DNA of 64,000 nt, taken from positions 265,771-329,770 of the forward strand of contig QPGO01000066.1 of NCBI GenBank assembly GCA_008632985.1, given 5' to 3'. Source of the DNA: Psammoneis japonica. Lineage: Eukaryota. This document shows positions 17,426 through 46,681 of the stretch, one piece after another. The position numbers and the translations under genes were made by a program. Position 1 is the stretch's first letter. Every line of letters starts with the position of its first letter. The notes beneath the pieces are model-generated. The model worked only from the letters and a program-made list of their open reading frames with translations, was not told where the DNA came from and made no database searches.

Positions 17426-17797
17426 GTCAAGGGAAGTCACTTGTTGACTTGCTCCAATTCTGACACTGATCGACGTCACACCATGATGCAATCTCAGAAT
17501 GTGAGACCCTCTTCTTGTGAAAAGGATGATGTCATGAGATCACAATGTCAAAATTTCTCACCTGGCTGGTCTGCATCACATGCATGTCACATGCAAATTT
17601 TTTTGGGTGGTTGTGCTGTCGAGCACTGCATTCATGCGGACTGAGGCCAGGCCGTTCTCCGAAAAATCTGACGTTGCGCAACTCAACTCGCAACATGAAA
17701 ATGCAGTGACTCAAATGCCACACTGTTTCACTGTTCTTCATGCCACACTGTTTTGTTGCTGCTGCTGCCAATTTTCTTGCTGTCGGTTGCCGCAGCC

Positions 17798-18179
17798 GAC
17801 GGGTTCCAGTCCCAGGTGGGACTCCGTGTGACATTGGGCCCGCAGAATTCTGCGTGCGAGCTCCGCAGCAAATTTGTGCTGCAATGAAAATGTGAATGAT
17901 CACCAACAGAAAAAGAGGCAATTTTGCAAATGCATCTCCTCCTCCATGCTTGGAGTGCATCATTGACAGTTTGCCCGGGTGCATTCTTCAGACATTGAAG
18001 AATGTGCCAAGTGCATTTTCATTCTCACAAATGTTGAAAACAGAAAGCCCCTTTGGCTTTGCAAAACAGGGAGCATGAAACAATTTTGGAGAATGCAACA
18101 TGCAGAAATGTGCGTGCATGACACACAACACATGTCACAGTGCAGCAGCACGAGGTCCCACCCAGAGCTGGAGTGCGTC
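17798..18179 (+). mobile_element. GAC-terminal MITE (about 380-bp subfamily)
   Basis: GACGGGTTCCAG...CTGGAGTGCGTC with TSD AGCC (17794-17797, 18180-18183). Confidence 0.85.
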
Positions 18180-18820
18180 AGCCGTCCCTCACTCAACTCT
18201 CATTCTTCCATCATCTTTGGTTTCTTCCGGAGTCACCCCCCCCTGTCTGCAATTCCTGGTCACTGCAAGGAATGCAGCGCACCACCCCACAGCACCCGTT
18301 GCTTTTTGCGCTGCACATGTGACCCTCTCTGCGTGTGAATCATGCCTTTGATGCCTGCTTCTTTAAGACACCTGCACATGGCTGGTCCGCCCCACAGGCT
18401 TCTTTGGCCTCTGCTCCAATTGTCTCCCAGAGTAGATTCATTGTGTAAATCACGCCTTCGATGCCTGCTTCAAGACCTGCACGCAGCTGATCCGTCCCAC
18501 AGGCTTCTTTGGCCTCTAGGTCTACTGCAATTGTCTTGCGCTACATCATTTTGTCGTGTCTATATAGTCTAGGCGTACAGCACAGGCGTCTATTCAAATT
18601 TTGAGTTAGTTTCCGTTCGCCACCAGCCGAGCGAGAAATACATACGTACGCCGTACGTAGAGCGTTGAGTTTCGAACGCTTGGGAGTTCTTTTCCATACA
18701 CTCTATTCTGCACTCTCTGCACCGCCACGGCCCCATGGCGTTGATCCCTGTCATTCATTAGCAGCCCCTCTTCCATCACATCTATTATACTTCCAATCGA
18801 TTTTCCTGCCAACATCCCAT

Positions 18821-19723
18821 ATGTCCACCTCTGATCCTTCTTGTGATCATCTTATGCATGATCCTTCGCCAGCAGAGTTCGCTGCTGCTGCTGCGATGGC
18901 TGATGAGGAAGCAACGGATCGTTTAGCAGCACCAGCTGCTTCTGCGGCTGCTGCTGCCACTCCTACAGAAACACCCGCCGCCTCGTCGTCGTCTCCCAAT
19001 AAGCGCAAGAAGAAGAAATACAACAAGTATCCTCCAGTTACGTTTAACGACATGTTTTTCGAATTGATGGTATTCAGGTCTCAAACGGGTCATACGCGGG
19101 TTCCTTCTTCCCACACCCAACTCCATCGTTGGGTGACGCAAATTCGAAACCAGCGCAAGAATAATATCGTCTTGACCGAAAGACAACTGCAGGTTCTGAA
19201 TTCAATTGATTTCGTATGGGACGTGCCTCGACACGATCGACAAGAAAAGTGGAAGGAACACTACGAACAGTTGGTGGCCTATAACGCTCAACACGGACAC
19301 GTCAATGTGCCCCAGGCGACGCCGCTGGGCAAGTGGGTCAAGACACAACGCGAGAATTATCAACGACACCAAAAGGGATCGGTACGCAAAACAGGAAAAC
19401 CCTTTATTTCGCAAGAGCGTATTGAACTGCTGGAGCGTCTCAACTTTCAGTGGGCCATCAATCCACCCGTCGTCGGGTGGGAAGCACGCTTTGAGGCCTT
19501 GCAACAATACAGAGCCATTCACGGGAATGCCAATGTACCGCAGGGATACAAACCGGATGTTGCATTGGGGCGGTGGTGTATGAAGCAACGATCGCAGTAC
19601 AGCTTGCGTCGTCGTGGGTTGAAGAATCAGCTTACAGAGGATCGGATTATGCGGTTGGAGAATTTGGGATTCTTGTGGTCGGTCAACAAGAAGAACAAGG
19701 AAAACGAACAAACACAAGCGTAA
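18821..19723 (+). CDS. Helicase-associated (HA) domain repeat protein
   Basis: Three repeats of W/F..xxxL..Y...HGH.NVP...LG.WV..QR..Y...L...RI..LE.LGF.W after an Ala-rich low-complexity N-terminus. The ATG at 18821 is chosen as the likely start. Confidence 0.9.
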   Translation: MSTSDPSCDHLMHDPSPAEFAAAAAMADEEATDRLAAPAASAAAAATPTETPAASSSSPNKRKKKKYNKYPPVTFNDMFFELMVFRSQTGHTRVPSSHTQLHRWVTQIRNQRKNNIVLTERQLQVLNSIDFVWDVPRHDRQEKWKEHYEQLVAYNAQHGHVNVPQATPLGKWVKTQRENYQRHQKGSVRKTGKPFISQERIELLERLNFQWAINPPVVGWEARFEALQQYRAIHGNANVPQGYKPDVALGRWCMKQRSQYSLRRRGLKNQLTEDRIMRLENLGFLWSVNKKNKENEQTQA

Positions 19724-19982
19724 CTCATGATGGATGTTTCTACGGTAAGGGGTTCTAATTCATAGGCAATGCCGCAGTATTATTCAGTATTAGGGGTAGA
19801 GAGTAGGGGTTCTAATTGATTATAGAAGATAAGGCAGACATCGTTGGTTAGATCCATCCTTGCTTATCTAACGACGTTATCGACGTAAGAAATTGGTCGA
19901 ACAATGTGTATTGTGCAAAAGGCCGTCGTCTTTTTGTACCGACAAAAACCAAACTTGATCGTCGTCAATGTTTGCCACAATC

Positions 19983-21194
19983 TCACATCACAGATTGTAC
20001 CGGTCGCAAAAGCGATGATAGGTCCAAGTTTTGCGCACGTTGAGGCCGCTGACTATCATCCTCATCGTCATCATCCTGTGTTGAGTTAATTGGCTCGTCT
20101 TCATCGCTCAAACCATGTTCTGGGCAAGCAGGCATTACTTGCGCGCCGACGATGGAAGAGAAGCTGATGGCTGCCTTGACTGCCATGTTGAAAGGATCCG
20201 GCATGCTATTCTCTCTAGACGCTCTGGCACGGGCAACTTTGACTTTGTCCCACTCTAGATCGCTTTTCACCTTTGGAATTTGGATCGATGCTTCATTGCT
20301 TTCTAAGCCTTCCCTCTTGAGTTTCCACCATTTCTTCAAATCCGTCATCGGCACTGCATGAAAATCCAACTGTTCGGGTGTGAAAGACTCCCCAACAGAA
20401 TGATTTCGTACAGAACACGCTATCCCTTTGTAGAAAACCCGCAAGAGCTCGGTGGCCTTCTCAACGTCGTCTTGAGTGCATGTTGAAGGGGAGGCTTTGA
20501 GTATTTTTTCGCTACAGCTTTGTCCACTACCACCCCCAATGGTGATCGCCATGACGTCGTACTGGTCTGTTCCATTCCAATCCAATACATCGTCAATTTC
20601 ATAGATAGGAATTAAGACGAGTACAGGCTGGCGGTCATAGTAATCTCCTTGCCGCTCCAGATACAATTTGTTGAGTTTATGATGCTTCAATCCGGTTCCT
20701 GGTGAACGTTTTGAATTCCTAGTTTTCTTCACACCGTTCAACAGCTTTAGTCGTTCCTCGGGGGAATTAGCTTGTATCCCTGTGGCGGCTTGGGCAAGAT
20801 AGCCATAGGACTTGTGGTACACAGGTGCATTCGAAAAAAGATGAGCCTTTTCGGCTGTATCGTTCTGGAACATATCAAAGCGTGCTGGGCTTTGTTGGAC
20901 TGTGTTGGTCAAACTTGAACTTTCAGATTGACTCATGAGATACGACAAGCTTACCGACGTGATCTGGGCATATAAACCATTGCCCTGCACTTCCGTTCGG
21001 CAAATGGCACGGAAAAAGCTGTCGTCGTCAGTGATTGCCACTTGCTCCACTTCCCAAATTTCTTGCATTGAATTGAAAAAAAAACCGTTCGATCGGGCCA
21101 CAAATTCGGCTTGTGGCAGCTCCTCCAGAAAGTTGTTGCGAGCCTGTCTTCGTCGTTTAGTCTCTGCATTGTCCGTTGTCTGTAGAGCGTTCAT
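19983..21194 (-). CDS. Hypothetical 403-aa protein with HNH-like motifs
   Basis: Intact ORF with normal Tyr content. AEKAHL...NKLYL...YYD resembles the AHI...N.L.L...FD pattern of HNH_2/Crinkler-type nucleases (tentative). Confidence 0.7.
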   Translation of the reverse strand: MNALQTTDNAETKRRRQARNNFLEELPQAEFVARSNGFFFNSMQEIWEVEQVAITDDDSFFRAICRTEVQGNGLYAQITSVSLSYLMSQSESSSLTNTVQQSPARFDMFQNDTAEKAHLFSNAPVYHKSYGYLAQAATGIQANSPEERLKLLNGVKKTRNSKRSPGTGLKHHKLNKLYLERQGDYYDRQPVLVLIPIYEIDDVLDWNGTDQYDVMAITIGGGSGQSCSEKILKASPSTCTQDDVEKATELLRVFYKGIACSVRNHSVGESFTPEQLDFHAVPMTDLKKWWKLKREGLESNEASIQIPKVKSDLEWDKVKVARARASRENSMPDPFNMAVKAAISFSSIVGAQVMPACPEHGLSDEDEPINSTQDDDDEDDSQRPQRAQNLDLSSLLRPVQSVM

Positions 21195-21328
21195 GGTGCT
21201 TCACTGTCGCTCTGATTGTGTAATTGTGCTCCAACGAGAAGTGGTGGTCTGCTGTCTGTTGCGACGCTACCGTACTATAGAGAGTAGAAGATACTCACGA
21301 CTCCCTTCCGTACCGTATGTGATGTGTT

Positions 21329-22311
21329 TAGGCCCTGGCCCAATGCGCACTCCCACACCCCAAAATGCGCACCTTTTTTTGGCACTTTGCGCAGTACGTA
21401 CAATTCTACGTGTCCCTGGTACTGGACGACGGCAAGACACACGACAATCCAATTGACAAAGGAGGCATCAAAAAGCACAGAGTTCAACCGCCCTGCATTC
21501 ATCGCAAATTTCAAAGAGGAGCTGAAGGTGTACAAGGAGAAGACTGACAAAATAGAAGATGGCCATTGGACTGCTCTTGAAGGATCAGATGAGTGTGACA
21601 CCATGCTTGCATTGAAAAAGCAGGAAGAAGCTGGGAGGAGCGTGATCCAACGAACCTTGAAGGACACATGGACCGACCGGCTTGGAAAGAAGATGATGCA
21701 GAGGTTGCAAGGAGGGTTTAGGAATGGTGACATGTTCACCATGTGATGCATTTAGCCATGTCTGAAGCTGCACGTCTGGTGGTCCTCATGCAACTTTCCA
21801 GTGCTCCCGTCGAGCCAGTTTTTTCTCAGCTCAAGTGCATTGTTGAGACAGCTCAGCAAAACACGTTGCATGATGCCATTTTGTTGCATCTCTTTTCTCG
21901 TTTGCACAAGGGACATGATGTCAATCAAGACTGTCAGCGGCACTGCAAGAAAAGCCCAGAGTCGAGAGAGCTCTTTCTCTCAGCGCTCGAGTGCACTTGC
22001 ACGGTGCAATTTGCTTTGTTGTGACATCGTTTTTTCTCCTTGGCACAAGAAGGGATGTGATTTGGTGGCAACACAGTGTAGCAGCAACGTGATTAACATG
22101 ATGTAGCAGCAATGTGATGTGCCAGCAATGTGATGCAGTGGCAATGTAAAATGTGCGCAATCGAGAAGTGGCTTGACCGGTGATGAAGCACGGTTGCACT
22201 GAACCTGGCACTGCACCACGTGCATTCTACGCAGTGCGCACTCTGCGCAAATTGTGCATTCTGCTCACAGAAAATCCCCAGTTTGCGCAGTGCACATTGG
22301 GCCTGAGCCCA
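21329..22311 (+). mobile_element. Defective hAT transposon
   Basis: Imperfect 23-bp TIRs (TAGGCCCTGGCCCAATGCGCACT versus TGGGCTCAGGCCCAATGTGCACT, 19/23). Perfect 8-bp TSD GATGTGTT (21321-21328, 22312-22319). The remnant ARLVVLMQLSSAPVEPVFSQLK matches the hAT C-terminal dimerisation motif SSA..ER.FS. Confidence 0.92.
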
Positions 22312-22879
22312 GATGTGTTGCTGTCCCCACTCCCAGCACGAACCATGCTGTGGTTTGCCGCGCGAAATCACGAATGCGCGCGATTCCTGCCCCGGACCAT
22401 CAAGTGGTTTGCGGCAAGCCAAAAACGAACCGACAGACGATGGGCAAAAGTGTAAAAGACAATGAGACATCTACAATGACATTGCATCAGTCGACACAGC
22501 AACGTCTGTTTGACAATCTGTGTGCTTTGTTTTGGTGGTTTACTGTGCTCTTAAACGTCTCCGTACTTTCACTGTCTTGTTCATCGTGAGCATCATTTTT
22601 CTGATTCAATTTTGCATTCGACCCTCAGGCGCAAATTACACGCATGTTTCTAAGAGAGTCTGCTGGGTTTCTTCCTCAATTGAGGCAGCAAAATTGTCCT
22701 CAATTGAGGTGGGCAAAATGCGCCCGCAGACAGAAAACAACACACTGCTTTAGCAAACAACACGAGAGACAACAATGTTCTGTTGCGCAAAAACCAACCA
22801 GAGTGCTCGACTGAGAGTGCATCAGACACAAGAGGAAGCAGAGTCAGCAAGTGACAGAGGGCAGTCAACACATCAATTG

Positions 22880-23200
22880 CCTGCTCTCTTGACCATGAAA
22901 ATGTCTGCTCCTCTCACACTCCCAAACTCAGAAAAATGCCAAATCCTGTCCACTCGACACACCAACTGTGCTCTTCCAGCTCAGCGTCAGGCTGAGGGCT
23001 TCCCGATCCACTGTCCACTTCATGTCAGAACAGCCACCACTGTCACCAAGCTGTGCATGACATTCAAAGTTTGTTGGCGTGGCAATTCCCTTTCCCATTC
23101 TGACATGCGAGGCAGCAACAATTGCCAACAAAGATGACTTCATTGTTGGCATGGAAGAGAGGATGAGATGAGCGAGACTCCCATGCTTTTGTGGCATCAA
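22880..23200 (-). pseudogene. Decayed copy of the 5' end of the DOMON/monooxygenase gene (35636-35947)
   Basis: Colinear alignment by eye. All 6 TpA of the source segment are gone. Confidence 0.92.
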
Positions 23201-23888
23201 GAATTTTGTTGGCCACCTGTTGCGTTGCACAATGCTGCGGCAGAGTTGCACTCAGGGACCTTGCAACAGCCTTCTTGATGCTCTTGTTTTCTTTTGAATG
23301 TCCGTCAGTTGGCGAATTGCTGAGCAATTCAATGATGTTGCGGGGACAAATGATGAGCAATGTTTGTTGGAAGAAGCACAATGGACAGTGGACAATGCCG
23401 GTGCCAGTGGGCCTTTTGTGCACATGGAGTGGAGCAACACTGCACAGAGGTTCACACAAGAATTTGGTGAGCATGTTTGTCTGTGGAAGAAAATTCCTTG
23501 GATGTGAGAAAAACTGCAGGAAATGGGAGTCAGTCATTTCCCCCCACAGCGTTGCACTGTGAACGCTCTTTCTCTTGCATCTCCAGTTGCATCTTGTGGA
23601 GTTGAGCATCAGAAGTGCTGACATTGTGTCAGAAGAACTGCAGCCACTGGCAACAAAGAAGTGCAACAATGGCACATTTCCAAAGGGTGATCCACTGTGG
23701 CAGTGCCCCTCCCTCAAGCAGAGATTTGCCGCTCAACACAGAGGAGGAGATGCGGCAGAGGCCATTGGGCAATTGTGATGGAGCCTGAACAACTTTTGTT
23801 TTCCTGCATTGTGCAATGACTTGCAAAGCACCACCACTCATTGTGCCACACACAAGTGCAAACAAGCATTTTGTTGCTCCACCTTCCT

Positions 23889-24069
23889 GGGCAACCACAG
23901 CCGGCACCCTGGAGCTGGGTGCCAGTGGTTGCGCAGCTGCATGTCAGGTTGTGGGTGGGATCAAGCTGAGTGCAAAAATTTGGGTGACCACAGCTGGCAT
24001 GCTGGAGCTGGGTGTCAGTGGTTGCGTGGTTGCATGTCAGGTTGTCTGCGGGGCAAAGCTGAGTGCAAA
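23889..24069. repeat. 93-bp tandem duplication
   Basis: ACCACAGC..CTGGAGCTGGGTG..AAGCTGAGTGCAAA starts at 23894 and 23987. Confidence 0.8.
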
Positions 24070-26802
24070 CATGGAAAAACAATGGTGTGTTTTCTTGTCA
24101 GTTGTGGTTGACTCTTGCACAAATTGTCAAATCTAAAAGCACAAGCACTGAGCAGGGGGCAACTCTCTTTTTTGTTGCACTGCAAGACTGCCAGCACTTG
24201 AAGCAGCCATCCTTCATGACCTTTTGCAGCTCTTCACAGCTGGAAAAGGGAGCCAGGAGTCATTGGCAAAATCACCTCTGAAATTTTCAAGGCTTCATTT
24301 GGAGATCATGATGACACTGCCAACAATGCCAACTCAGCTCTTTGGGAGTGAGCGCAGCAGAGATCATTGGCAAAAGAGCTCATCAATGTTGCTTCTGTGC
24401 AAAGCTTGGCCAAGCTCTTGTTGCCCTTGATGCTCTTGGCATTGTCAGACCAAAAAGAGGACAAAGTCATTCCCATCAAACCCTGCAATCTGCAGCAGTC
24501 TGACTTTGTTGGCATTTTCTAAGACTGCAAACAGCGCCAGCAGGGTGGCAATCTGCACTTCTGTGATGGGTTGGATGTGAGCTGATGCAGCGCACATTCT
24601 CTCCACTGTGGGCAGCACACTTTGATTTTGAAAAGCACATGGTTGAAACAGCAGCAAGCTTGTGCAGCTCACATGGTGGACAGCCCTGCTGGTGCAACCC
24701 AAGCAACAAGTGCCGCCATCAACAAAATGGCTGTTGCAGCAAATCATCAAGTTGCTCCAAACACAAGCCACTCAATGCTTCAAAAGGCTGAAATTTTTTT
24801 GAAAGTTGTTAACCTCAAAAAAGGTTGAAGCTGGCTGTGCTTTGTTTTTGGAAATTGCTGTGGAGTTGCACTTGTGAAAGAGGCACAAAGAACTGTCAGA
24901 TCAAAGTTTTGCCCATTTGTTGCAACTGTTTGTGTGTCATCCACAGCCTTTTGACTTGCCTCACTGGTGCCCCAATGTCTCAGATGTTTTCCAGCACCAT
25001 GCAACGTGCAAATGAGCACTTTGGTCAGCTTGTGTGTTGGCTGCATGCCAAGTGCATTTGTCTCAATTTTTGCTGTCAAAAACTCAAAATGTCTCATCTG
25101 CACTCCAAGGCAAACACTCTTTCAAAAAAAGCAGATTCTCAACAGTGCAACAAATGCTGTCCTCAACACAACAATGAAGATGACAGTGTGCAGGTGCAAT
25201 GGCTGACTTCCACCACATGTGGGGGCAAAAAACGTGAGCTGTGTCTCTTTTGTTCAGAGCTTGTGTGGGACAGCTTCAGCAAGCTTGAAGCCAAATGTTT
25301 TGCACCCACTTCTTGTGCCATTGTGACCTCACTCCAAAGTCATTCAAAGAAAAAATGAGGATGTCATTGCACCCTCCATGTCCAAATTGGTTGCTCCACA
25401 TGGCCGCTTCTGCACCTTGCATGTCCACTTTGGTGACACATGACCAACTTTCTGTGGTGCACAAAGATGTGCAAAATCCTGCAAGCAAATGAAAAAGGTC
25501 AGTTTTGGCATGAGAGGTGCTGCTGCAACTTGCTGTTTGCTTCACCACATGTGCTGTGCCCAATCTGCATCATTGTCTGGGGCCACTTCCACAATTGCAA
25601 AGCCAAAAAAAGTGGTCAAAATGTCACCACAGGCTGTGGCAAGGTGTGCCAAAAGCACAACATGTCACTCCATGAAGAGCTTGGTGTGTTGAGTCATTTT
25701 CACCTTTCTTGCCACATGATCCTTTTTGTCCCTGGTTTGAAAGTTCTTTTTGTGCAAGGCAAAGAACTCACTTCTTTTAGATTTGTGAGTTTGCAAGCCC
25801 CCCCTGAAAATGATGGCATGTTTGAGCAGCTTGAAGCTCAATCAGAAGCTGCAAACTCACAAGGACAAACACAAATTTGATCTCCAAATCAACTGCCCTT
25901 GTGTCAGGGTGCTTTTAATGCAACAAAAGCAGGGGGTCAAAAGCAGCAAATTGCTTGAGCACACTCTCCAGTTGTTTGCACCAGTGTGCAAAAATGTTCA
26001 CAAATGAAAGAGACTGCATTTTGGCTTTGCAAGTTTGTTCCCAAGCTGAAAACTGTGACAAAATCTGTGTTTGCATGCCAAACTGCAATTTTTTGCACAG
26101 CTCAGCTCACACACAGCTTGGGCATGTTGTCAGCTCTCTGTCATGATCCTGGCACTGCCGTGCTGCACAAAATTGTTCAACCTGCCTGCCAGAAGTTTTT
26201 TGGGCTTTTCCAAGCTCAAACCAGCTGAAGCTGTTGTTCTTGAATGCTGGGCTGAGATGGAGGTGGTCAACTGGCTCAACATTCCAGGTGAGCTCCAAGC
26301 TGCAGTGCATCAGTTTTTTGCCATCTGCATGGCTCTGGAGGTGCTTGAAGGCCTTCTTTGTCATGGAGCATTTGATTGCACCAGGAAGGGGGCTTCAGAG
26401 ACTGCTGCTCAGCACTGGGTTCAACAACAGCTGTTGGATGGTGCAGAGCATTTTGCCAAATCCAGGGGGGCATCGGTTCATTTTTTTGCTGCCATCTGGC
26501 TTGCTTCTGAGAGAGTCTGTGAGGCGACAACTTTGGGGGTGATTGCAAGCGTGCTTGCAAAAATGGTTGATGCAAGGACTCACAATGGACAGTGAGTTGG
26601 TGAGTTGGGGCCCTGGCTCCCTGACTGAAAGAGGTGGGGGGCTGTCTCGGTCCTTTCTCTTCTCTCTCAATTTTCTTGAGGATTTCACGTTCGTGAGGAC
26701 CAGGATCTTGATCGACAGCTCTGTTGCTGTTGACACCAATTGCTTCAGACGATCGATGTCACCCAATTGTTTGCTTCATTTTCATGGTGTGCACGCTTTG
26801 AC

Positions 26803-27075
26803 GTTGCAAGAATACAGAGCCATTCACGGGAATGCCAATGTGCCTCAGGAATACAACGCGGATGTTGCATTGGGGCGGTGGCGTATGAAGCAACGATCTC
26901 AGCACAGCTGGCGTCGTCGTGGTCAACTTACAGAGGATCGGAGAACCTGGGATTTTTTTGGTAGGTCGGTCAACAAGAATAACAAGGAAAACGAACAAGC
27001 GCAAGTGTAACTCATGATGGATATTTCTAATCTCTGCGGCGCGGGGTTCGAATTTTAATAGGTAATGCAGTAGTA
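26803..27075 (+). pseudogene. Fragment of HA-domain gene 3' end and 3' UTR (copy of about 19499-19790)
   Basis: LQEYRAIHGNANVPQEY..DVALGRW matches the last HA repeat. It has small deletions and a frameshift, and shares TAACTCATGATGGAT after the stop. Confidence 0.9.
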
Positions 27076-27137
27076 TTCAGAATTATGGATGGAGACAACG
27101 CATGTGCCGTAACATGTATATATAGAATGAACAGTTG

Positions 27138-29471: not shown

Positions 29472-30644
29472 GGTAAAATGGTAGGAATAAAAGTGTGGAG
29501 AGACAAGAACAAAAAGATGTGATTTGAAGGCTCGTGTCAGTTGACCATGTTTGCAGCAAAAAATGAGCAGACAAGAATCTTGTGTAGAATTTGTACTGAA
29601 AGAGTCTGTCAATCGTCAGTGCGCTTGGGTGTTCATGGCCACATTCGGTGAGCCGCTGAACTGAGCCGACGCCTGCTTGTTCACAACGCACTGATGGGCA
29701 GGCTTCTTTTCAGCCAGCAGCAGATGATCACATGATGGATGTCATTTCACAAGTGCCATTGCACAACAATTGGTGTCATTTGTGCACTAATGCTGATTGC
29801 AGCAGGAAAACTGCTGAGCCACCACACTCTCCCCTCTGTGTCAATTCTCGAGGAGCTGCCCTGCCCCCGCACTTTTGCACGTTTTTGTGCCCAGTGCAGC
29901 ACACGCAACCACATCTCAGCTCCACTGTGACAACATTTCAGGAGCCACCCTCAAACCCTTTTCCAACACCCCTGCTCTAAAAAAAGTGCTGCTGGTGGGG
30001 CCATTGCTCCACCCCGTTGTCACGCAACACACCAAGTGCAGCAGCCAACATCATGACGTCATTTGTGAGCTTTCACACTGCTGTCCTCATGTGCTCCATC
30101 GTGCCCCCCCCCCCCCCCCAGGTGTTGTCATGGACACCAACACTGTCAACTCCATCACCAACAATGCAAAAACACCTGTTGCTGTCAATGATGACACTGG
30201 CGCAACAGGCAACATGGTTGCTGTGGCCATTGACTGGAAAAAATGCCTGCTGCAGGTGTCATCACAAACTCCAGGGCTGTTCATGACATTGGCAATGAAA
30301 CAATGCTTGTTCCTCCTTTTGATGCCAGTGCCCCTGATGCAACAGGCAGCAAGCCATTTCTGTGGCTGTCAACTTGAAAATGTGCAGCCAAAACAAAGTG
30401 CCATGGTCTCACACTCCTTTTCTCATGATCCATCCTCCTGCAGGCAGCCCTGCCATGAAAGTTTGCAGGCACTAATTGGCAAGTTGTGCCCAACCCCTTG
30501 TGCCACTTGGGCCATCCACTGAGCAGTGCTCTGGCTGAGTTGTGAAACTTTTGGCAGCACACCAGCCCAAGCAATTGTCTGTGTGCTGTGCTTCAGCAGA
30601 GATCTGGTTTGAAGAGACATTGGCTCCTTTTCCAAGTGCCAAGT

Positions 30645-30888
30645 GAATGCACTCCAAATGCAGGTGGAAATCCATGTGACACCAGGCCTGTGGAATTCCA
30701 TGTGCAAGCTCTGCAGCAAAATTTGTAAAACAACAAGACTTGGGCTTCACAAAACAGGGAGTGTTTTGAACAACTCTGCAGGAGAGGAGCACACACAGAA
30801 ATGCACATGAGAAACATGCAACAGATGACAAAAAGCTGTTGTGTCACACATCAGTGCTGCAAGCTCCCACCCATGGCTGGAATGCATC
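30645..30888 (+). mobile_element. Highly decayed GAC-family MITE remnant
   Basis: Contains GCCTGTGGAATTCCATGTGCAAGCTCTGCAGCA (homolog of 575-607) and ends CCCACCCATGGCTGGAATGCATC. Confidence 0.6.
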
Positions 30889-35904: not shown

Positions 35905-36216
35905 GGATGAGAGGGATGAGCGTCACTCCCTTGCTTTTTGCCAAGAGTCAACAAAAAGTGATCGTCCGCCCATGTGCATGCCGATACTCAGAGCAGGTCC
36001 TTCAATGAGAATTTCGTACCGGGTATGGCCACCTTTTTCGTCGTACTACAGGCGTGTAGCATTGCACAAGAGGACCTTGTATAACGGCCTTCTTGATGTT
36101 CGGTTTTGTCGACACAACAAATTACCGTATCTGCACAGCCAACTAACAGAGGTTCGCGCGAAAGGTCGGTGAGCGTGTTTGTCTGTGTTAAAAAATTCGG
36201 GTGTGTCTTCGCTTAA

Positions 36217-37734
36217 CGGGGACCCCTCGTAAGTCTGTACGACCATCCGATGGAGCATTTTTTGCGAGTGAAACGCAACCCTTCTGCTCGTGTTGTCACC
36301 AGGATAATTTCCGTTTCAGTCTGTTGCATGCCAACCTTGTTCTAGCTGTTCTGCTGGCTGTCCTTTTCAACAAATCATTTGTTCTACTCCTGTTGCCGAG
36401 GTTTGGTGAAAGGATCGCCAGGCAAAAGTTTTTTCTCGACAATGACAACTGTGGTTCTGAGTGTCGCCGTTGCCAAGCAACGATGCGCCAAACTCGTCCA
36501 AGCCCAGCCAAATGAAAGAAAAAGTTGACAAAAGGAAGCATGCGACCCTGGCACACATTGCATGGTGCTGGCATGGAAGAAAACAAGAATTTCAGTGTGC
36601 CAGGAGCAAGCCGCAAAATGTCAACATGTTCTTTGGTCATTGCAGCTGTCCTGTTGTCAATTCTTTCCTGCAAATCATTTGTTCTGATTCCATGGTTGAG
36701 GTTTGATCAAAAGGATTGTTGGCAGAAAGATTTTTGTGATGACAAGAATTGTTTGTCTCAAATGTTGCTGTTGCTCAGCAGGGGTGCAACAAACGCCTCC
36801 ACCAAGCGAGGACACCCAAATGATGGAAAGAACTGGAGAAAGGTTGGAAGCAAGAGACATGGAATGACCCTTGCCATCTCTTTGTTGACAGAGAAGTTTT
36901 GAGCACAAAAATGACCACAATCAGTGTCTTTTTGTGGGTTGGCAGTGTGGCAAACAAGTGCACATGCATTGTCAGAAGCGATGGAAACCAAAAACAATCC
37001 TTTGGGATGTTCACAATGCCTGCCCATCAGAGAATGGCAAGGGCAAGGATTGCTGCAAAAATGTTCAGAGCCAGGACAACTGTGCTGCAACCAAAAGCGC
37101 TGCTGTTTTTTGTTGGTGTGACAGAGCATTTGCCACAGCTCCAGAGGACAATCTGGGGGTTGTTGTTCTGCAACTGTTGGCTCCAGGTTTCTTCCAACAG
37201 CGATGTTCTGTAAAGCATTAAAATGATGTCTTAAAAGGTTGTTGCTGCTTGAGCAGCTCTTGTGTGGCAAAATGCCCAACATGCCCATCACACTGCGTTT
37301 TCTCAGACAGGCTGTTTCTGATCATCATCAAATGGAAACACTCCAGAAATCATCACATCCTTGGAAACAAACACTCTTTGACCACTGTGCTTCACAGCAG
37401 CTGTTCTGGATTTCTTCACCCAACTGAGCAACAGCACAGCAGCACTTTCCACATCCCTTGCAGCAGTTGTCTGTGCATGGGGCTGAAAACAATTTTTTTC
37501 TAATTGGTGGCACCTCAGAGGACAGATGAGATTCTGGATTCATTGAGTCCCAGAAAGCCACCATGCTGCAGTGCCTCATGTGTGAGGTGAGGATCCATCC
37601 ACACACCTTGCAAGCTAGCCAAAAATGCAGTGACAAGAAACGTTGCAGCCTCCACAATCTTCATGGTTGGTTTGGTGTTTTTGTGATGGAAAAAAAATGC
37701 ACATTTGTCATGGGGCAGACTTGGGGGGGTCCCG
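36217..37734 (+). mobile_element. TTAA-flanked non-autonomous TIR element (piggyBac-like; TA-TSD class not excluded)
   Basis: TTAA|CGGGGACCCCTCGTAAGTCTG ... CAGACTTGGGGGGGTCCCG|TTAA. A second partial copy is at 925-1545. Confidence 0.7.
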
Positions 37735-38336
37735 TTAAATGTCAGTGGGAATTTGCAAACACCCAATCTTTGAAATGTGCACGTGGGGTCACTGCACAAA
37801 AAATGTTTTCTTGCTCAGAATGGCCATCACCATGATTTGATGGATGCCATGTGGCTTGCATGCCATGAAAACATCTCAGACCTGAAAAATGAGATGTGTT
37901 GTTGCTTGTTCATGACATCGCCAAGGCAATGACATGTCATTTTTTGTGGGTCTGGAGTGTCATGGCATGCTGTCGCTCACGTTGGTTTGGCTGGCCAGGG
38001 TGGATGGAATCTTTTCTGGATCGTTTTTTTTTTGTCCACAGCAGAGTTGTGCACAAAGACAGTGCAAAGTGTGCAGATGAGTTTTTGTTGTGCCACTTGT
38101 TGTTTGCTTGCAAGTCATTCTGACTGCCACCATTTGGTGTTGTCTCAGGTGACCTGCAAAAGAAGATGGAGGGCAGCAAAGACCATCTGGAAGTGCAAGC
38201 ACCCCGCATCTCTCCCTTGGCATTGGTGGCATCTTTTGCGAAGCCAACTCAGAAGTTGTGAAGGTGGCTGAGCTCTGTGGGAAAATGGCAAAGCATTGCT
38301 GGAAAACCAAGCTCTCATCTTGCAGCAAGGGCTGAG

Positions 38337-38757
38337 ATGGGTGCACACAAAAAGGTCTTGTGTGTGCACCCATGCATCTGAAACTGTTGGATGAATTGCA
38401 AGGGCTGTGTTGAGCGCACGTGCGTGCAAACATGAAGTGGGGTCAGTCCTGCCCACTCGTGACTCAGTGCTTTCCTGCAGCGAAAATTGCGCAGAAAGCC
38501 GACGATGACAAAAACGGTCAGATGACTTCTGCCAACAACAACATTGACTGCATGTGATGCACATTCCATCATCTGACCATTTCTCTCATTGTTGGCTTCC
38601 TGCGCAATTTTCGCCGCAGGAAAGCACTGAGTCACGAGCAGGCGGGACTGACCCCACTTCATGTTTGCACACACGTGCGCTCAACACAGCCCTTGCAATT
38701 CATCCAACAGTTTCAGATGCATGGGTGCACACACAAGACCTTTTTGTGTGCACCCAT
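38337..38757. repeat. Foldback palindrome with arms of about 190 bp and a spacer of about 43 bp
   Basis: 38337-38525 is the near-perfect reverse complement of 38569-38757. Each outer end is itself a small hairpin ATGGGTGCACACA...TGTGTGCACCCAT. Confidence 0.9.
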
Positions 38758-39524
38758 GACAACACATTTGAAAATTGTCATGTTTTGACCATTGAAAATG
38801 GTGCCGCAAGTGTGGGCCGTGCGTTTCATGCAAAAAGGGTCATTTTTTTTTAGCATGAGCGCACCCAAGTGTCTGGAACAAGTTCTCTGTGAAGCACACA
38901 GCGGGCATTGTTGTTGTGCATGTCACATGGTTGCTGCAACTTGAGCTCAAATTTAAAGGCAACAGCATCCCAACCCATCTCACTTCCACTGACAAAATGG
39001 CACTGTCAAAGTGCTGGTGTGTGTGGTGGTGCTTGGCATCATTTGTTTGGCGGTGATGTGAGAATTTGCGTGCTGCTGTGTGACCTTTTGAAGTCACACA
39101 CAACACCCAAAATTTTGTTGGCTCACCACTTGTGCCAGGCACATCAGCACAGACTTTGTGTGCGTGCTGTGCATGCCAAAGGCAGCTTGCTTGTGCTTTG
39201 TTTTTGTGTGGCGACAAACACACGGCGTCACATGGTCGTGAACAAGCTGGAGAGGGGGTTGCAACAAGTTTGATGAACCATCTGCATGGCAGAGTGTGAT
39301 CAGCTGCTGGCAATTCTGAGGCAACATCATGACATGCAGCAACATCAGGTCAAACAATGCCAATGAAAGCAGATTGTACGGAGCGGACAATGTCATCATG
39401 ATGTCACACATTGGATCTTGGATCTTTGAAAAATCGCAAAAACACAAAAACATCTGAATCTGGAAAGATCCCGGAAAGCACACTGCATCTGCAATTCATT
39501 GCCTTTTGCTGTTTTTGGCATTGC

Positions 39525-39790
39525 AGCACAACAACAACAACAATGGATTGTCTCTGCTGTGCGGATGGTGGCATGGGTCCAACAACAGACTTGGAGTTTC
39601 TGAGCAGCCTCTGCAATCTTGGCTTGGGAGAGGCAAAGTTTCCTGCCAAAGCAAACTGACACACCTTGTGCACATTGCCAGGTGTCCATTTGCAGCTCCT
39701 CTGTGGCATGCATTGTGGAGTGCTGTGGACTGACAGATTCAATTGAGGTGAAAAAGTGCTTTCCTGCAAGTGAAGACAATGGGTGGTCCA
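39525..39790 (+). pseudogene. Decayed copy of the 5' end of the glutathionyl-hydroquinone reductase gene (46682-46927)
   Basis: MDCLCCADGGMGPTTDLEFLSSLCNLG..AKFPAKAN* aligns to the intact gene. CGA->TGA creates a stop, and 5/5 coding TpA are changed to TG/CA. Confidence 0.93.
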
Positions 39791-40060
39791 CAGCCAAGGA
39801 GATTGTGCAGCCATGTGACTTGGCATGTCAGCATTGAAGTCAACAAGTGCCAATTGAATGAAACATGTCTGGGAGCAACAATTGCGCAACATGCCAACTG
39901 GCAAAGTGAAAACAAACAAAAACATTTCAGCCCCAATGAGTGAACGTTGAATTAAATCAGGAGGGGGGCAACCAATGTTTGCGTGCATGGGCACGCCATG
40001 AGATGGTGAGGTTCAATGACCTGTGAGTCAAGGCCTTTTCTGTGGGTCTCTGATGTGAGA

Positions 40061-40359
40061 TGCACAAGTGACTCCAAAAAGCAAGGACACATCACAAAAC
40101 AAATCAAATGCATGACAACAGCCAACAATTGCCACACAGAAGTTTTTCCAGGTCCTTTTGTTGAGTGTTGGGTCAAGCTGTCATGCCCAACGTGAAAAAG
40201 CAGCTCCAGCATGCACAAGAACCAGCAACAAGTGTGAGTTGCACAAGTGACTCCCAAAAGCAAGGATGCGTTGCAAAACAAATCAAATGCACAACAATTG
40301 TCCACAATTGCAACATGTGAGTTTTCCAGGTCCTTTTGCTGAGCATCGGGTCAATCTGT
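40061..40359 (+). repeat. Direct repeat of about 120 bp at 180-bp spacing
   Basis: TGCACAAGTGACTCC.AAAAGCAAGGA...TTTTCCAGGTCCTTTTG at 40061 and 40241. Confidence 0.75.
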
Positions 40360-41263
40360 TGTGTGCAAACAGTGTGACGCGGCACCTGCAGCAGCATCCC
40401 CAAATGACCAGCAGCATGCTGGCAGCCTGGGTCACCCCTGTAATCCACAACTCAGTCCAAGTCACTCACAAAGTTCCAACACAGTGTCAAATCCAGCATT
40501 GCTGCCTTGCTTTGGAACACAAGACAAAATGGAGCAGTGTGAGTGAGACAACGGATTGCAACACCAAAAAACCACCAGAAGCATCTCACTGCACTGCAAA
40601 TTGCATGGCCACTGATCAACACACTAAATTTTCTCACCACAATGCCATGAGATGTGCACACCAGTCACAGGACAGGGATTGTCAGCAGTGTGGAGCCGGT
40701 TGTCTTTGAAATGAGCACTTCAGAGACAATCGGCATTTTCCCCATTGACGACTTTTGAATTTGTGCACTCATTGCAGCAAGCATGTCAGAAGCTGCAATG
40801 CGCCACGTGATCTGATGCCTGGCTGGCAGCAAACTCAGTGAGCAATGCAATTTCAAGTTGTTGCACAGTCTGTCCATTTTCAGTCAAAAAACTTGAAAAG
40901 AAAACCAGCCCTTCAGGAAGCGTTGACTGCTTGCCCTTCTTTGTGTTGGCAATCCCAATCTCACAGCAGCTTCGAACTCTTTTGAAAAACAGTTCCACGC
41001 ACCTGTTGCACAGGGAATTCATCATTTTTTTTTTAGAAAGTCTGCATGAACTCCAATGTTTTTCATGACAACCCTTCAGGTTTGCACAACTGATTGACAC
41101 TGAACAACCCACACTGCACCAAATTGCAAGAGACACTCTTCAAAATGGGGGCTGACTGACCAGCAACACACAGAACAAATGAATGGATCAACGACACCAA
41201 CCGACCAACTGACAGACTGACATGAAAAAGTCTGCAATCACCAACCACCGAGTGGTCAATGAA

Positions 41264-41821
41264 GACATGTTCCAGCCACACTTGACCCAAATTGTGCACA
41301 AAACAACATTTGCATGATTTTTGCGTGGTCTCTCACTTGCGAACAAGGTTTCACCACCAAAAGAACAGATTCATCCAAAATTGAATGTTTTGCAACACTG
41401 ACAAGACTTGTGTCAGTGTCGCAATGTCATTGTTTTTGTGCCATCCATGTTTTTCATTGCAGTGAACTGATTGCAACACTCAATGGATGATTTTTGGCAA
41501 AACTGTTGCCGTCATTTGAGTGTCAAATTAAACATTTTTTCTGCAAGACCTTCTTGCAGGCATTCTGCCTGCAACTGAAAATCTGCATCCAATGCACTGT
41601 CGTGCAACCAGCATTGAGTCTGCACAGACCGAGTTTGTGACACATGTCCCATGAGGATTTTAATGCCAATGAAAAAACTGTTTGCATGTGCATGCTCTAA
41701 AGTTCTGTGAAATCCCACCCACCCAAGCATTTTGCATTTGCGTGCCCCACACAGGAGAGACACACAATTTGTGTTCAAAATGGACTGTCATTTTGTGTGT
41801 CACCTGGGGCTGGAACATGTC
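41264..41821 (-). mobile_element. GAC-terminal MITE (inverted homolog of 10129-10684)
   Basis: GACATGTTCCAG...CTGGAACATGTC with TSD TGAA (41260-41263, 41822-41825). Confidence 0.88.
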
Positions 41822-41975
41822 TGAAAGATGTGTTTTAGTCCCAAAAGGTCAATGCCAGCATCCACTTTTGCACGGCCCTGAAAAAGGAAAAACGGCTAAA
41901 ATGCGACAGCATTTTTTGCGAATGTGTGCAATTTTTGGAAAAACCTTCAAATGGCTTGAGCGCGAATGCTGAATT

Positions 41976-42168
41976 CACCGTGCAAACAACACGACAATGG
42001 CCAAAATGCCGTTCATTCAACGCAATGGATGTGGGGGGGCCTCCAACTTTCTTCACAAGTTTGTTGCCCATGTCAAATGCAGCACACTGTGAAAAAAGTC
42101 AGGGGCTGTCCCACTGAGTTTTCGAGAACGAACGGCATTTCGGCCACTGTCGTGTTGTTTGCACAGTG
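41976..42168. mobile_element. Small MITE with TIRs of about 43 bp
   Basis: CACCGTGCAAACAACACGACAATGGCCAAAATGCCGTTCATTC is inverted-matched by GAACGAACGGCATTTCGGCCACTGTCGTGTTGTTTGCACAGTG. Confidence 0.75.
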
Positions 42169-43028
42169 AGCGCAGAACGCGTCGGTGTGTTTTTTCCATG
42201 ATTGCATCACAATGATGCAAACATTAGTCATTTTTGATGCTTTTTGCAAATGTGTGTCGAAAACACAAGGGATTTTCCACCCTCAACTTGGGGTCATCTG
42301 TGTGTTTGTCCTGGAATTGCAGTGGCACTCGAATGCGCACAAATGCGCTGTGTCAACAATGACCCGCTCACCGTTGTTGCCGCTTGTGTGGTGTGGCACT
42401 TTCATTGATGGGGTCATGTCATTCATTGTCCAACATGCCTCGTGATGAGTTGGTGGATTGCTGAGGTGGCATGTGCAGCGTTGCCGGTTGCCGTATAATT
42501 ATTCAACATGGGTTCTTCACACCCGAGGCTCATCAACCACTTATGCACCGCATACTCGGTCATGCACTTCCGCAAGAGATTCCATTATTTATAGTCTTTA
42601 TTAATACTTTTGAATACAAAAATTGTTCATATTATATTAGTGACCCCGATCGCGTGCGAAAACGAGAGATCAGACACCATGATCGAAGCGCGACTATGAC
42701 GGCAATCTCGACATAATTCGAAAACGTAGTGGTCCGGCCACAAACATTCGACTAATATGTGACCTTTGATACACAACGAACATAAAATAAATGAGAGGTG
42801 GCGTATACGGACCAGCGTTCGGTTTCTGATCTGTTCCAACTCGTCTCACAATTCGAGCATCTTCTCAACTCCTGGCGCCACTGGGCAGAGACGCAGAAAA
42901 TGTCTCGATTAACGCTCGAGGAAATTTCCTGAAAATGAGAACGCCTCCGAGAAGCCTTCAAGAAAACACAAATCACATCATACAACAAACAAACAGTACT
43001 GTTTTCTAAAATACCAAGAAGAAACCTC

Positions 43029-46000
43029 ATGAGTGCGGAACTGATGAGACGACAGTCATCAATTGACATGGGTAAGTCCAAGTTAAGGTTGCCCGTGCTG
43101 TTGTGTTGCTCAGTTTTCTCCTCTCACTGATCTCCTGTAGAAGTCGTCCCAATTGTCAATCACGATGAACTCAACTCCCAGATACAAGCCTTTTTGGAGG
43201 ATCAGCTGGAAGCCAAGGTGGAAGTCTACTGCAGAAGGATGGAGGAAGGCTTGCAACAGGAGATTGAAAAGGATTTTCGGGATAAAATTGAAAAGAACCT
43301 GCGAGAGGAGTTTGACGAGGACATTAGAGACAAGATCCAGAAGGAGCACGAAAACTTTAGAGAGAAAATTGGAAAGGCTTCTGAAGAGCTACGTGTCGAA
43401 ATGAAGACGGTGTACCAACGGATTGGAGCGCGCGAGGAGCAGAGAGACATTGATCTACGCTTCGACCTCGCTCAGACAGTAGAAGATGTTGTTGAGGGAG
43501 GAATCAGTCGTGTCAAAGCGCAAGTTGATCGCGACAGCCAGGAGAGTTTACTTCCAGAGGATACGTTTAGCTTCTATGCCACGACGAAGTATTGGAAACG
43601 TTGGTATCATCCAACCTCATCGTTTGCGTTGGCAAGTATCATTTTTGCTGTTCAATGCTTCACCTTGTCGTTGCTAGTGGTTGACGTGATTGATGTCAAT
43701 GGCAGCGTAAACCCTCTCGGTATTCCTGCTGGTGTCGATATCCAAGTTCGAATCAGCCAGCTCATCGCGCTCTTCATCACCGTCATTAGTCAGGAGGAAG
43801 TCACATTCTCTCTCAACGTGATTTACAATGGTTACGACAGTCATGCTCTGCAAGACGTGGGATGTCAGTCGTCGTCACGTCCCAAGTGGTTTCTATCTGC
43901 TATCCTTCGTCTTTTGGTTGGCCTACTTTGTCATGCAGTGACATTTATGCTGATCATGCGCTCGGCGACCGTACGGGATCTCTTGCTCAACTTCACGGCC
44001 GTTACGTTTATCTCGGGCGTGGACAACGTCGCATTTCTTCTTTCGAAGTGGGGTTACATTACATGCGGTAGAACTACGGTAGAGGCCAATATTATCGCAG
44101 ATGCCAAGCGAAGCGCTAAGGAACAGTGCAAGACCAGTGGGTACTTTTCGCGTAGTGCTTGCTTGCTTTTCATATCTCTTGTTATGCTCGCGTGCTGGCT
44201 ATGGATTTCAATGAAACAATCGACTGGGGCCTATCTTTCTAAGACTATTTATGTACAGTTTGGAGATGAATTTTCCCCGACTCTTGGGACTTTCAGCGGT
44301 ATCTACAAGCTAGATACCGAAGGGATTAAGCCAATCCTTGGAGGAAGAGTCCAGTATATCGAGAACCGTCCTGGCCGTTACGATGGTTCAGCTAGCTTTA
44401 GATACTGCAACGGAGGAGGCTTTTGGGCATTTACCTACGGCTCGAATGAAAATGAGACGCCCAATCCATGTGACTATAGAGCACGATCCACCAAAACATC
44501 CACGTTCGAAATTACGGAGACCGTACCTGACTCGTGGTTCTTCCGCGACGTTCATGCGTCAATTGACTTGCCGCTCCAGTATTTTGCAATGAGCCGTTTG
44601 TCGAATTATGCTGGCATGCCATGTAGCGACAATAGTGATTGTGGAGAAAATGAACTCCTTACCTGCGACAACACGACTTGCGTTTGCGTCGACGGTGGCT
44701 GCGACTTTAGCTGTCGATTCCAAAAGCCTTGCCCAACTGTTGAAATCAATCCTCTTTTCGATAGCTTTGACAGTACTCGTACTTGGGCTGCGAGATATGA
44801 TCTCTTGCGAAGTGGACAATCGGATACGATGGTCCAGGTGTACAGCCGACCCGTCTATATCGGTAGGAAATCCTCCGAAGGAACGTACGACATTCTTATA
44901 TACACTGGAAGGCGCTGGGTATTGACTGAAACGGGATACCTTGGAAATGTGAAAAGTCTTTTTGATGTTGCCAACTATCTCGATGGGGGGTTTCATGCGC
45001 ATTGGGTTGATTTCAAGGCCTCATTTATCAGTGAGCCAGTTGATTTTGACACTCCCACGGATGCCACTAGTCCGGCCGGCCTCAAATGGTTTCACGCCGG
45101 TAAGACGCTGACATCCGATCCAGATGGTGAGCTCGCTATGCAACCTCCTCTACTAACTCGTCCCAGTACTACAGTTCTGCTCTGTGCTACTTGTGACATT
45201 GACTCCAATCCATGCGCTTATGAGGGATACTGTTGGCCTGACGGCAACTGCACTTGTACTACAGGATCCTCAGGGATTCTGTGTCAAATCCCACCTGTTC
45301 AAAATGGTCATTGTGACGTCTACTTCAACTCGCCTGAGTTTGATTATGATGGTGGAGACTGTTGTCCCTTGACTTGTGAAAGTACCGATCAGCATATCTG
45401 CGATGTTGAGGAGATCTTCGGCTTGAGAAAAGTTGCTGGATATCCAAGCTGCCTTGATCCAGGACAGCTATGTGTTCCGTCTGACAAATCATGTTGGAAA
45501 TCCATGGACGAAGTTTCTTTTGGTGAAGGTTACGCAGCGCAAGCAGCTTGTTTCTCCATTGCTCTGTCGCGCGATGGCCGGGTGGCCGCTTCTTACCATC
45601 ACAGAGGGTTGAACGAGGTCCGCGTCTTCGATCAGGACGGGCGGCATTGGTTGCAGCGGGTGGCAACTTTAAGCCCTCCCAGCTCTATCGACCATTATGC
45701 GGAGTTTGATTGTGGCATGCAAGCCTCGTTGGTGTCTCTATCCAGCAAAGGTGAATATATTGCAATCGGCTGGCCTTCTTTCGACAATGGCACAGGCGGG
45801 ATGGATGATGGTCTCGTGCAGGTTCTTGAGTGGGAACTACCCAACAGGTGGCTTGAGCATGGTTCAATCATAAGGGTCAACGCATCCATAATGTCAGTTT
45901 CGTTGTCAGCTGACGGCGATACTCTTACGGTCGGAGGACGAATCGATGGACCCAACATGAGGGGTGTGGTCCAGTTGCTCGTTTACGAACTCTACCCCGA

Positions 46001-46346
46001 GCAGACGAACTGGACGCTAGTCGGAAACGAGACTATTGATATGGGCGGAGATCTCACTGCCTTAGCATTCTCGGTGTCAGATGATTGCAAGACTCTAGCG
46101 GTTGGATTAGGCGCCACTGCTGCTGGCTGCTTCTCTTTTCACTTGCGCACTTGCCAAAGAGAAACAGCACAGCATGCTGCTCATCAGCAATTTTGGCAGG
46201 AAAGGCTTGGTGGCAAAAACAGAACATTGGCTGTTGCTGTGCAAGTTGTGAAAATCTGGAGTCTGGGCAGCAGCACAGCTGCAGGAAGGGGGGCCTTTGT
46301 TCTCACCTGTTTTTGGGTTCTTTTCTCTCACGTCTCTTGCCATTGA
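43029..46346 (+). CDS. Multi-pass membrane protein: coiled coil, about 5 TM, EGF-like, LNR/Notch-like and FG-GAP/beta-propeller-like repeats; 3' end apparently replaced
   Basis: Exon 1 43029-43071 and a GT-AG intron 43072-43140 join in frame to the 1050-aa ORF. EGF-like CAYEGYCWPDGNCTCTTGSSGILCQ; LNR-like NGHCDVYFNSPEFDYDGGDCC; repeats SIALSRDG, VSLSSKG, SVSLSADG. Confidence 0.8.
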
Positions 46347-46681
46347 CACACTTGTCACAGTAAAATGTGGATGTCATGCATTGACATTTTTGGCAGGAAA
46401 CGGTTTGGTGGCAAGATCAAACATCGGTTGTTGCCGCATCATGGTTGGTTTGTTGTTTCCTTCTCTTTTGTCGCAGCAGCATGAATGTCGTAAAACGTCT
46501 GGCCGTCGTACGTGCGAATTGAACGTATGGCGTTTTCTCCTCTCCTCCTCCTTTTCCTCTTCTTTTTTTTTCATAAAATCGGAGCTACCTACGTGACCGG
46601 ACATATGCCGCAACGATTGCCTTCCTTTTATTGTTGATTGACGCAAACGTACGAGTAACAGTGTGTGATAATAACAACAAT

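Follow-up and report, generated by a model that had tools for sequence, protein, structure and literature searches.

The 64,000-nucleotide stretch of Psammoneis japonica DNA analyzed here (contig QPGO01000066.1, positions 265,771-329,770, hereafter the window) holds its genes in islands of intact TA content surrounded by DNA that has lost almost all TA dinucleotides, hereafter called erased DNA; we studied the piece from about 18433 to 46480. An element that touches an island at one end keeps TA over approximately 100-500 bp at that end and loses it at the other, copies of gene pieces have been hit or spared according to their location, and the decay of CG fades in parallel with distance. Because the island-touching end of a transposon keeps its TAs, the mutator appears to be aimed by place in the chromosome and not by element sequence; we consider it probable that a mutator changing A>G (T>C) specifically at TpA acts on a positional chromosome domain rather than on particular sequences.

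TA-Intact Islands and Erased Domains

Islands and erased DNA were called with a two-state hidden Markov model (HMM) of TA content, which separates islands of 34-41 TA/kb from erased domains of 1.7-3.8 TA/kb. Over 18433-46480 the islands contain 514 TA in 13,214 bases (38.9 TA/kb) and the erased DNA 45 in 14,834 (3.0), so that the islands of intact genes seen in an earlier reading of this DNA from its letters alone (hereafter the sequence-only reading) are confirmed. In erased DNA, TA is reduced to 0.08 of the island level and CA/TG is raised 1.49-fold, whereas CG falls less than TA, from 56.0/kb in islands to 24.6/kb. The loss of TA is near-complete and more than half of the window is erased. 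The genes of the window are compact and include HA-domain, DOMON/Cu2-monooxygenase, GST, TIR, Cys/Met PLP and IF-2B genes.

The TAs remaining in the erased DNA of the window are biased in context: relative to island density, TTAA stands at 0.82, CTAA/TTAG at 0.30, ATAT at 0.01 and ATAC at 0, and far from islands the repeat families keep none of 53 ATAT and 2/119 ATAG. Sequence context was ruled out as the cause of retention, since the most mutable contexts are also kept near islands (ATAC 11/27 near vs 0/117 far).

Retention of TA at the Island Side of Transposable Elements

Two non-autonomous elements of the window are crossed by a TA edge (table 1). The first, which we take to be hAT-like from the convention that associates terminal inverted repeats (TIRs) with an 8-bp target-site duplication (TSD), shows no Pfam match between 21329 and 22312. 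Its left TIR, on the gene side, starts with TAGG while the right TIR reads TGGG, and comparison with a 92% sister copy shows that 7/8 TA survive over the 260 bp nearest the gene and 5/17 over the 260 bp at the other end (Fisher p 0.011), a contrast between the two ends of the kind that the sequence-only reading had described for the TIRs; the middle of the element was already erased in all copies. The second element, TTAA-flanked and piggyBac-like, keeps TA as far as 36385, with 5/5 TA retained in the first 200 bp and 0/15 in the next 800 when compared with its sister copy L096. Its left end had been called partly erased, a description that holds for the TA kept up to 36385 but not for the missing TAs, which are inherited: since L096 lacks them too, this end represents a step plus inherited loss, with no local gradient. 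The TA and CG edges of this element may coincide near 36500.

In the wider comparison, 34 copies of the TTAA family and 18 of the hAT family were projected on a reference, six short or mis-flanked TTAA copies being dropped, and an end was classed as island-side if a TA-intact island lay within 160 bp outside it. Within 350 bp of the left end of TTAA elements, TA is kept at 38/90 sites on the island side (6 copies) vs 22/260 on the erased side (19 copies); the corresponding figures are 79/180 (9 copies) vs 24/324 (18 copies) for their right end and 29/45 vs 0/41 (7 copies each) for the left end of hAT elements. Among copies with one island-side end, 11/12 keep more TA on that side, be it left or right (p 0.006). 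A logistic model with one term per copy, accounting for age, and one per site, accounting for terminal repeats and context, was evaluated by permutation of the labels. The island-side effect was reached by 0/500 permutations for the 33 copies in which each end could be assigned a class and by 0/1000 for 27 de-duplicated copies, a set that leaves out shared-flank copies, both references and a near-duplicate. When the outermost 40 bp were excluded, it was reached by 5/1000. The effect thus depends on position within single elements, as the sequence-only reading had supposed, and is seen at left and right ends once the age of the element and the site are controlled for.

When all copies are pooled by distance to the nearest island, TA retention declines from 22/24 within 100 bp through 44/78, 21/54 and 19/82 to 50/484 beyond 2 kb, and that of CG, in the same bins, from 78/91 through 90/123, 57/101 and 87/179 to 276/1000. 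One positional function describes both decays; past the first 100 bp, the logarithmic rate of loss is approximately 1.4-2 times higher for TA than for CG. The smoothness of the pooled slope arises because different edge positions and inherited losses are mixed together.

Shorter repeats were compared in the same way. Copies of the miniature inverted-repeat transposable element (MITE) found at 41883 keep 36/47 TA when both flanks are intact and 26/191 when neither is, at transversion distances of 0.035 and 0.027, respectively. For the MITE at 42586, copies with both flanks intact retain 49/52 TA, and the copies in erased DNA (L074 and L075) 0/13 and 0/14. The repeat ending at 46120-46609 keeps its terminal TAs at 46/61 sites beside islands vs 16/60 beside erased DNA (16/20 copies were complete enough), and three linked MITE copies inside an island, 93-98% alike, retain 15-20 TA each. 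For the MITE at 17798, none of the copies sampled has two intact flanks, which leaves this sample uninformative.

Copies of Gene Fragments

Pieces of genes within the window have been copied into erased DNA and, in one case, beside an island gene. The fused copy at 9340-9907 matches 18596-18852 and 21032-21328 and is a deletion derivative of two neighboring genes; 8/9 TA have changed to TG/CA in its HA 5' part (9340-9597) and 2/6 in the part from the neighboring gene B (9616-9907). Altogether, the four 5' copies in erased DNA show 21 changes of TA to TG/CA, 5 TA kept and 0 reverse changes, with A>G/T>C outside TA at 25/484 sites and a transversion divergence of 3.1-5.4%. No strand bias is present near gene 5' ends (75 TG vs 86 CA). 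The change from TA to TG or CA is one-way, strand-symmetric and located outside gene islands. The source genes are undepleted, with 37 TA in the 1126 bp of duplicated parts and 173 in the 4964 bp of the rest.

The HA 3' copy next to the stop of gene 27138 keeps 5/7 aligned TA and loses 2, and retains 9/10 CG with one transition, in agreement with the near-integrity attributed to it by the sequence-only reading. Erased 5' copies of the same age (HA, DOMON and GST, 3.7-5.4% transversions) keep 1/20 TA. A young age of the HA 3' copy was rejected as the cause of its TA, since its transversion distance of 4.4% falls within the range of the erased copies.

Position, Width and Nature of the Edges

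The edges obtained with the HMM lie within 10-110 bp of those proposed previously: 18540 moves to 18433, 26800 to 26813, 29640 to 29594, 33050 to 33062, 36290 to 36385 and 42490 to 42494. The distance to the nearest start or stop codon is 388, 359, 325, 123, 68 and 481 bp at six edges and approximately 535 bp to the start of gene 43029 (start and intron assigned by eye; 745 bp with the ORF caller, ORF denoting open reading frame). The proposal that TA switches 100-400 bp from coding ends therefore suits most edges, but 2/7 exceed it and the full span is 68 to ~535 bp. Step and ramp fits with simulation show all seven window edges to be compatible with widths from a step to a 200-bp ramp, the observed step-vs-300-bp-ramp score being reached in at most 3% of 300 simulations per width for ramps of 300 bp or more. 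With a width of at most about 200 bp, the edges amount to steps and not gradients, and the short gradients ascribed to them were overstated.

Some edges nonetheless have a history of their own. The edge at 18433 is straddled by a tandem pair, in which the distal copy reads TG at 2 TA sites and TG/CA at 3/4 CG sites of the proximal copy (18333-18536), and no junction was found at 33062, where repeat matches stop at 32764. In the element at 42322-42586, 5-7 TA of intact copies read TG/CA in the left part. The position 46480, formerly listed as a boundary, is not an HMM edge but marks where a 370-bp patch with a single TA (46120-46489) ends on its inner side; the body of the element concerned has 4 TA or fewer in all 20 copies, and the 46120-46490 piece was already erased when it arrived. 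This piece replaces the 3' end of gene 43029 at 46120, and the reading frame stays open to 46346 because erased DNA has no TAA or TAG. The sequence-only reading had set one outcome against itself, namely that edges lie only at junctions of already-erased elements; this fails overall, even if three edges are junctions, and its interpretation is partly supported.

Fitting places the CG edge outside the TA edge at 7/7 edges (by 90-880 bp). This outer position may need no separate cause, because the slower decay of CG alone would give an offset. In a survey of 82 island edges, biased to DNA-transposon loci and not contiguous along the contig, 64 had an ORF; the data do not support a wider shield at 5' than at 3' gene ends, the medians being 461 and 348 bp, respectively (p 0.11). 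Of these 64 edges in the biased sample, 49 are turned toward the 5' end of a gene and 15 toward the 3' end, and the left ends of hAT elements lie 0-130 bp from an ORF 5' end in 6 copies; the 5'-facing edges may reflect a preference for insertion in promoters.

Table 1. Features of the window, in order of position within each group; islands and erased domains are those of the HMM.
Feature	Positions	Strand	Remarks
TA-intact island 1	18433-21553		41 TA/kb; holds two genes and the first 225 bp of the hAT-like element
Erased domain	21554-26812		3.8 TA/kb, 17 CG/kb
TA-intact island 2	26813-29594		holds gene 27138-29471
Erased domain	29595-33061		1.7 TA/kb; matches to low-copy repeats up to 32764
TA-intact island 3	33062-36385		holds DOMON gene and first 170 bp of TTAA element
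Erased domain	36386-42493		3.1 TA/kb; holds GST 5' copy and MITE 41883-42286
TA-intact island 4	42494-62535		
HA-domain gene	18821-19723	+	in island 1
Gene of unknown function	19983-21197	-	in island 1
Gene 27138	27138-29471	-	in island 2; weak SURNod19 match, below cut-off
DOMON/Cu2-monooxygenase gene	33130-35904	-	in island 3
Intact gene 43029	43029-46119	+	intron 43072-43140 by eye; cut at 46120 by element piece
Edge	18433		inside ~95-bp tandem pair; nearest repeat 250 bp outward
Edge	21553		inside hAT-like element
Edge	26813		at left junction of HA 3' copy
Edge	29594		20 bp inside repeat end
Edge	36385-36499		inside TTAA element
Edge	42494		on joint of ~1-kb internal deletion within one element
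MITE	17798-18180		nearest repeat outside edge 18433
Tandem pair, ~95-bp copies	18333-18536	+	straddles edge 18433
Non-autonomous hAT-like element	21329-22312	+	TIRs and 8-bp TSD on both sides
Repeat-family end	29573-29720	+	window copy has TA only in first 25 bp (29585, 29594)
TTAA-flanked (piggyBac-like) non-autonomous element	36213-37738	+	TA edge 36385-36499, CG edge 36495-36549
MITE	41883-42286		2/21 TA kept; in erased domain
Element with internal deletion	42322-42586	+	left part erased, right part keeps TA
MITE fragment	42586-42814	+	upstream of gene 43029; 8/11 TA kept
Right end of larger repeat	46120-46609	+	body 46120-46480 inherited erased
Fused HA 5' and neighbor-gene 5' copy	9340-9907	+	in erased DNA; joint 18852>21035
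Erased DOMON 5' copy	22867-23190	-	0 TA kept, 5 to TG/CA; 9/14 CG to TG/CA
Shielded HA 3' copy	26791-27095	+	adjoins stop of gene 27138
Erased GST 5' copy	39530-39787		0 TA kept, 6 to TG/CA

Evidence Against a Positional Domain and Alternative Explanations

Several observations weigh against the positional reading. The TA sites of each copy were defined from the other copies, and these share ancestry. The right end of hAT elements gives no support, with 1/13 TA kept on the island side (1 copy) vs 22/144 on the erased side, and in the sister copy L177 this end retains 7/8 TA beside erased DNA. Conversely, little TA is kept beside an island at the right end of L114 (2/18), the left ends of L103 (2/15) and L101 (3/15), and the right end of L181. 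Termini far from islands still hold 11/47 TA in their first 50 bp, the gene-B 5' copy keeps 4/6 TA within erased DNA, and the linked MITEs inside an island differ at 3-6 TA sites, so shielding may be incomplete. Three window edges (26813, 42494 and 46120/46490) are junctions. Furthermore, islands were defined by the TA content of the flank and 8/29 island flanks have no ORF of 150 codons, for which reasons shielding by genes as such is only partly shown. Finally, erased flanks consist mostly of other repeats and island flanks are mostly unique, so that proximity to a gene is confounded with the edge of a repeat block.

This last confounding makes homology-triggered mutation with leakage, as in the repeat-induced point mutation (RIP) of fungi, the chief rival. 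Repeats would be recognized by pairing, and mutation would be weaker along the margin of a repeat block and leak to short neighbors, so that an end beside unique DNA is spared as the edge of the block. A leakage gradient over several hundred bases is described for RIP in the accessible text of PMC2973834, and the gene fragments that have been erased measure 250-320 bp and have repeats around them, a setting expected under leakage. We regard this explanation as unlikely. The three linked MITEs, and two more that are 96% alike, are largely intact within islands, high-copy MITEs with intact flanks keep most of their TA (36/47 and 49/52, see above), and the source genes of the duplicated pieces are untouched. 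Moreover, it is protection that extends into the repeat here, while in RIP mutation spreads outward from it, and the hypermutable viral region of Bigelowiella natans is described as single-copy in what is accessible of the preprint (bioRxiv 10.64898/2026.01.13.699255).

A mutator active everywhere, with island TA preserved either by purifying selection on codons and promoter motifs or by better repair near transcribed DNA, appears decidedly improbable. In 9/10 island ORFs (5107 codons, one ORF being dropped for a frame error), synonymous Val/Leu NTA codons amount to 122/451 and T|A at codon junctions to 222/634, compared with erased DNA in which TA/(TA+TG) is 0.03. Four introns recognized by eye have 20 TA in 342 bp, some of them in splice signals, and the non-coding DNA of islands 195 TA in 3,393 bp, intronic and intergenic TA reaching 57-58/kb. 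Since synonymous, intronic and intergenic TA persist in islands, codon selection does not explain them, as the sequence-only reading had argued, and no selection could hold the 22/24 TA and 78/91 CG present over the 100 bp closest to islands in the ends of dead transposons. It is true that a moderate avoidance of TA at synonymous sites is seen in island genes (35% for T|A compared with 59% for T|other), a further point against a clean positional boundary that may reflect ordinary TpA avoidance or a slight leak, which are inseparable here, and that 49/64 edges in the biased sample face gene 5' ends. A shield based on repair would look identical to a lack of targeting, but the strand asymmetry expected of transcription-coupled repair is not seen (75 vs 86).

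The least probable alternative is that all edges are junctions of already-erased elements, with terminal TA kept by selection for mobility, that were inserted beside genes: it is true of 46120-46490, of the deletion joint at 42494 and of the TTAA left-end TAs lost also in the sister, and agrees with the TAs of termini far from islands, yet as a whole explanation it is largely refuted, because retention follows the flank at either end in TSD-flanked single insertions and the terminal sites of the 46120 element also depend on the flank, and it remains a contributing cause at three edges.

Relation to Known Systems

TpA hypermutation of this kind is already known from B. natans, in which TpA changes to TpG/CpA on both strands, in a region-confined manner, in silent foreign or mobile DNA, at approximately 1000 times the background rate and in some lines only; its authors suggest epigenetic guidance and an ADAT-type (ADAT2-like) deaminase, with extension to transposable elements (TEs), according to the accessible text of the preprint (bioRxiv 10.64898/2026.01.13.699255). 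The window shares with that system the one-way change on both strands (21 vs 0 reverse) and the confinement to regions that spare host genes. As far as that text goes, the B. natans case concerns two viral insertions with partial depletion of TpA (rho 0.45), measured in mutation lines, whereas in P. japonica the targets are DNA transposons, MITEs and host-gene fragments, not DNA of viral origin, and the loss is near-complete over more than half of the window, is coupled with CpG decay and has edges set by the neighborhood inside single elements.

RIP of ascomycetes resembles the present case in its dinucleotide-specific hypermutation of repeats, with sharp blocks and short border gradients, but it changes C>T at CpA and so creates TA, which A>G destroys here (PMC2973834, accessible text). 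It also mutates both duplicates, whereas here a copy is affected only if it lies in the erased domain, although the pieces are short and a length threshold is possible. In model diatoms, TEs are CG-methylated islands (DNMT5) with H3K9/H3K27 marks and genes mostly are not (PMC9998398, accessible text). The CpG decay of TEs but not genes found in P. japonica, with the same positional slope as that of TA, is in line with such methylation, but deamination of 5-methylcytosine (5mC) yields only CG>TG/CA and not TA>TG/CA, and methylation in P. japonica is a prediction from the sequence.

Our literature search, outside of which lay most subscription journals and preprint supplements, found a single preprint on TpA hypermutation and none on edges; the accessible text of that preprint tests neither edges nor shielding on the gene side. 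What is new here, therefore, is not the kind of mutator but the reciprocal test, controlled for age and site, over two families, together with the parallel CG slope, the width of the edges and their division into positional and inherited ones. How a TpA mutator picks its targets is the question at stake, and a pattern of erasure set by the neighborhood, with CpG decaying alongside, reduces the candidates to a positional mark. The analysis also names exact bases (21553 and 36385-36500) at which maps of methylation or histone marks should switch, and implies that the ages of TEs and gene fragments in such genomes depend on position.

Possible Mechanism

The sequence-only reading attributed the pattern to a chromatin domain held off by active genes, a hypothesis that goes beyond the positional effect described above. 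By analogy with model diatoms, the domain would be silenced, CG-methylated transposon chromatin, which open chromatin at genes and their promoters may push back by one to three nucleosomes. The mutator would work only inside this domain, either as a DNA adenine deaminase or through error-prone repair started at 5mC deaminations. Changes of A>G at TA are of the polymerase-eta type, which is the basis for the idea of error-prone repair near 5mC lesions. Because non-autonomous elements remain mobile after erasure and deletions carry erased DNA to genes, some edges are inherited junctions superimposed on the positional rule. C5-methyltransferase genes are present, with 27 PF00145 matches of which five are full-length without stops, and may include a DNMT5. 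Many of the matches cluster on contigs C10, C297, C301 and C34, some of them with stops, and are possibly borne by elements.

A bolder proposal, which we put forward tentatively as the less likely outcome, is that a chromatin-guided DNA editor independent of homology rewrites TpA across the silenced genome and is halted by open promoter chromatin, the TA edge being a fossil map of heterochromatin boundaries at base level and the transposon end that has landed in a promoter being saved. If true, such saving would favor the promoter-facing insertions seen.

Other Observations

Already-erased non-autonomous elements have multiplied (L077-L095, L100, L102 and L104, 88-93% alike with shared losses), and erasure is for this reason compatible with mobilization while the ends are usable. 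Two TTAA-family copies that are 96% alike (L099:3006-4500 and L113) are TA-rich, and the one lying within erased flanks is a young insertion that erasure has yet to reach.

Contigs of runs X1 and X2, which represent one sample and possibly the source of the assembly, were compared with the window over 17600-37500. The edges 18433 and 33062 are each spanned by a single contig without differences, and no clear TA-specific signal was present among the 40/84 variants viewed. Contig depth in X1 is approximately 31 over 29585-35751 vs 57-63 in 18150-26840, and dense allele differences are present at 28813-29080; the 29585-35751 stretch is possibly on one haplotype or has a diverged allele.

At 56866-57478, a perfect 307-bp tandem duplication lies in the TIR-domain ORF and represents a recent event or an assembly artefact. 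Within 62290-64000, the final edge of the window is found approximately 250 bp past the stop of the Cys/Met gene; beyond it, TA is gone and CG stands at 52 per kb, as in a young element.

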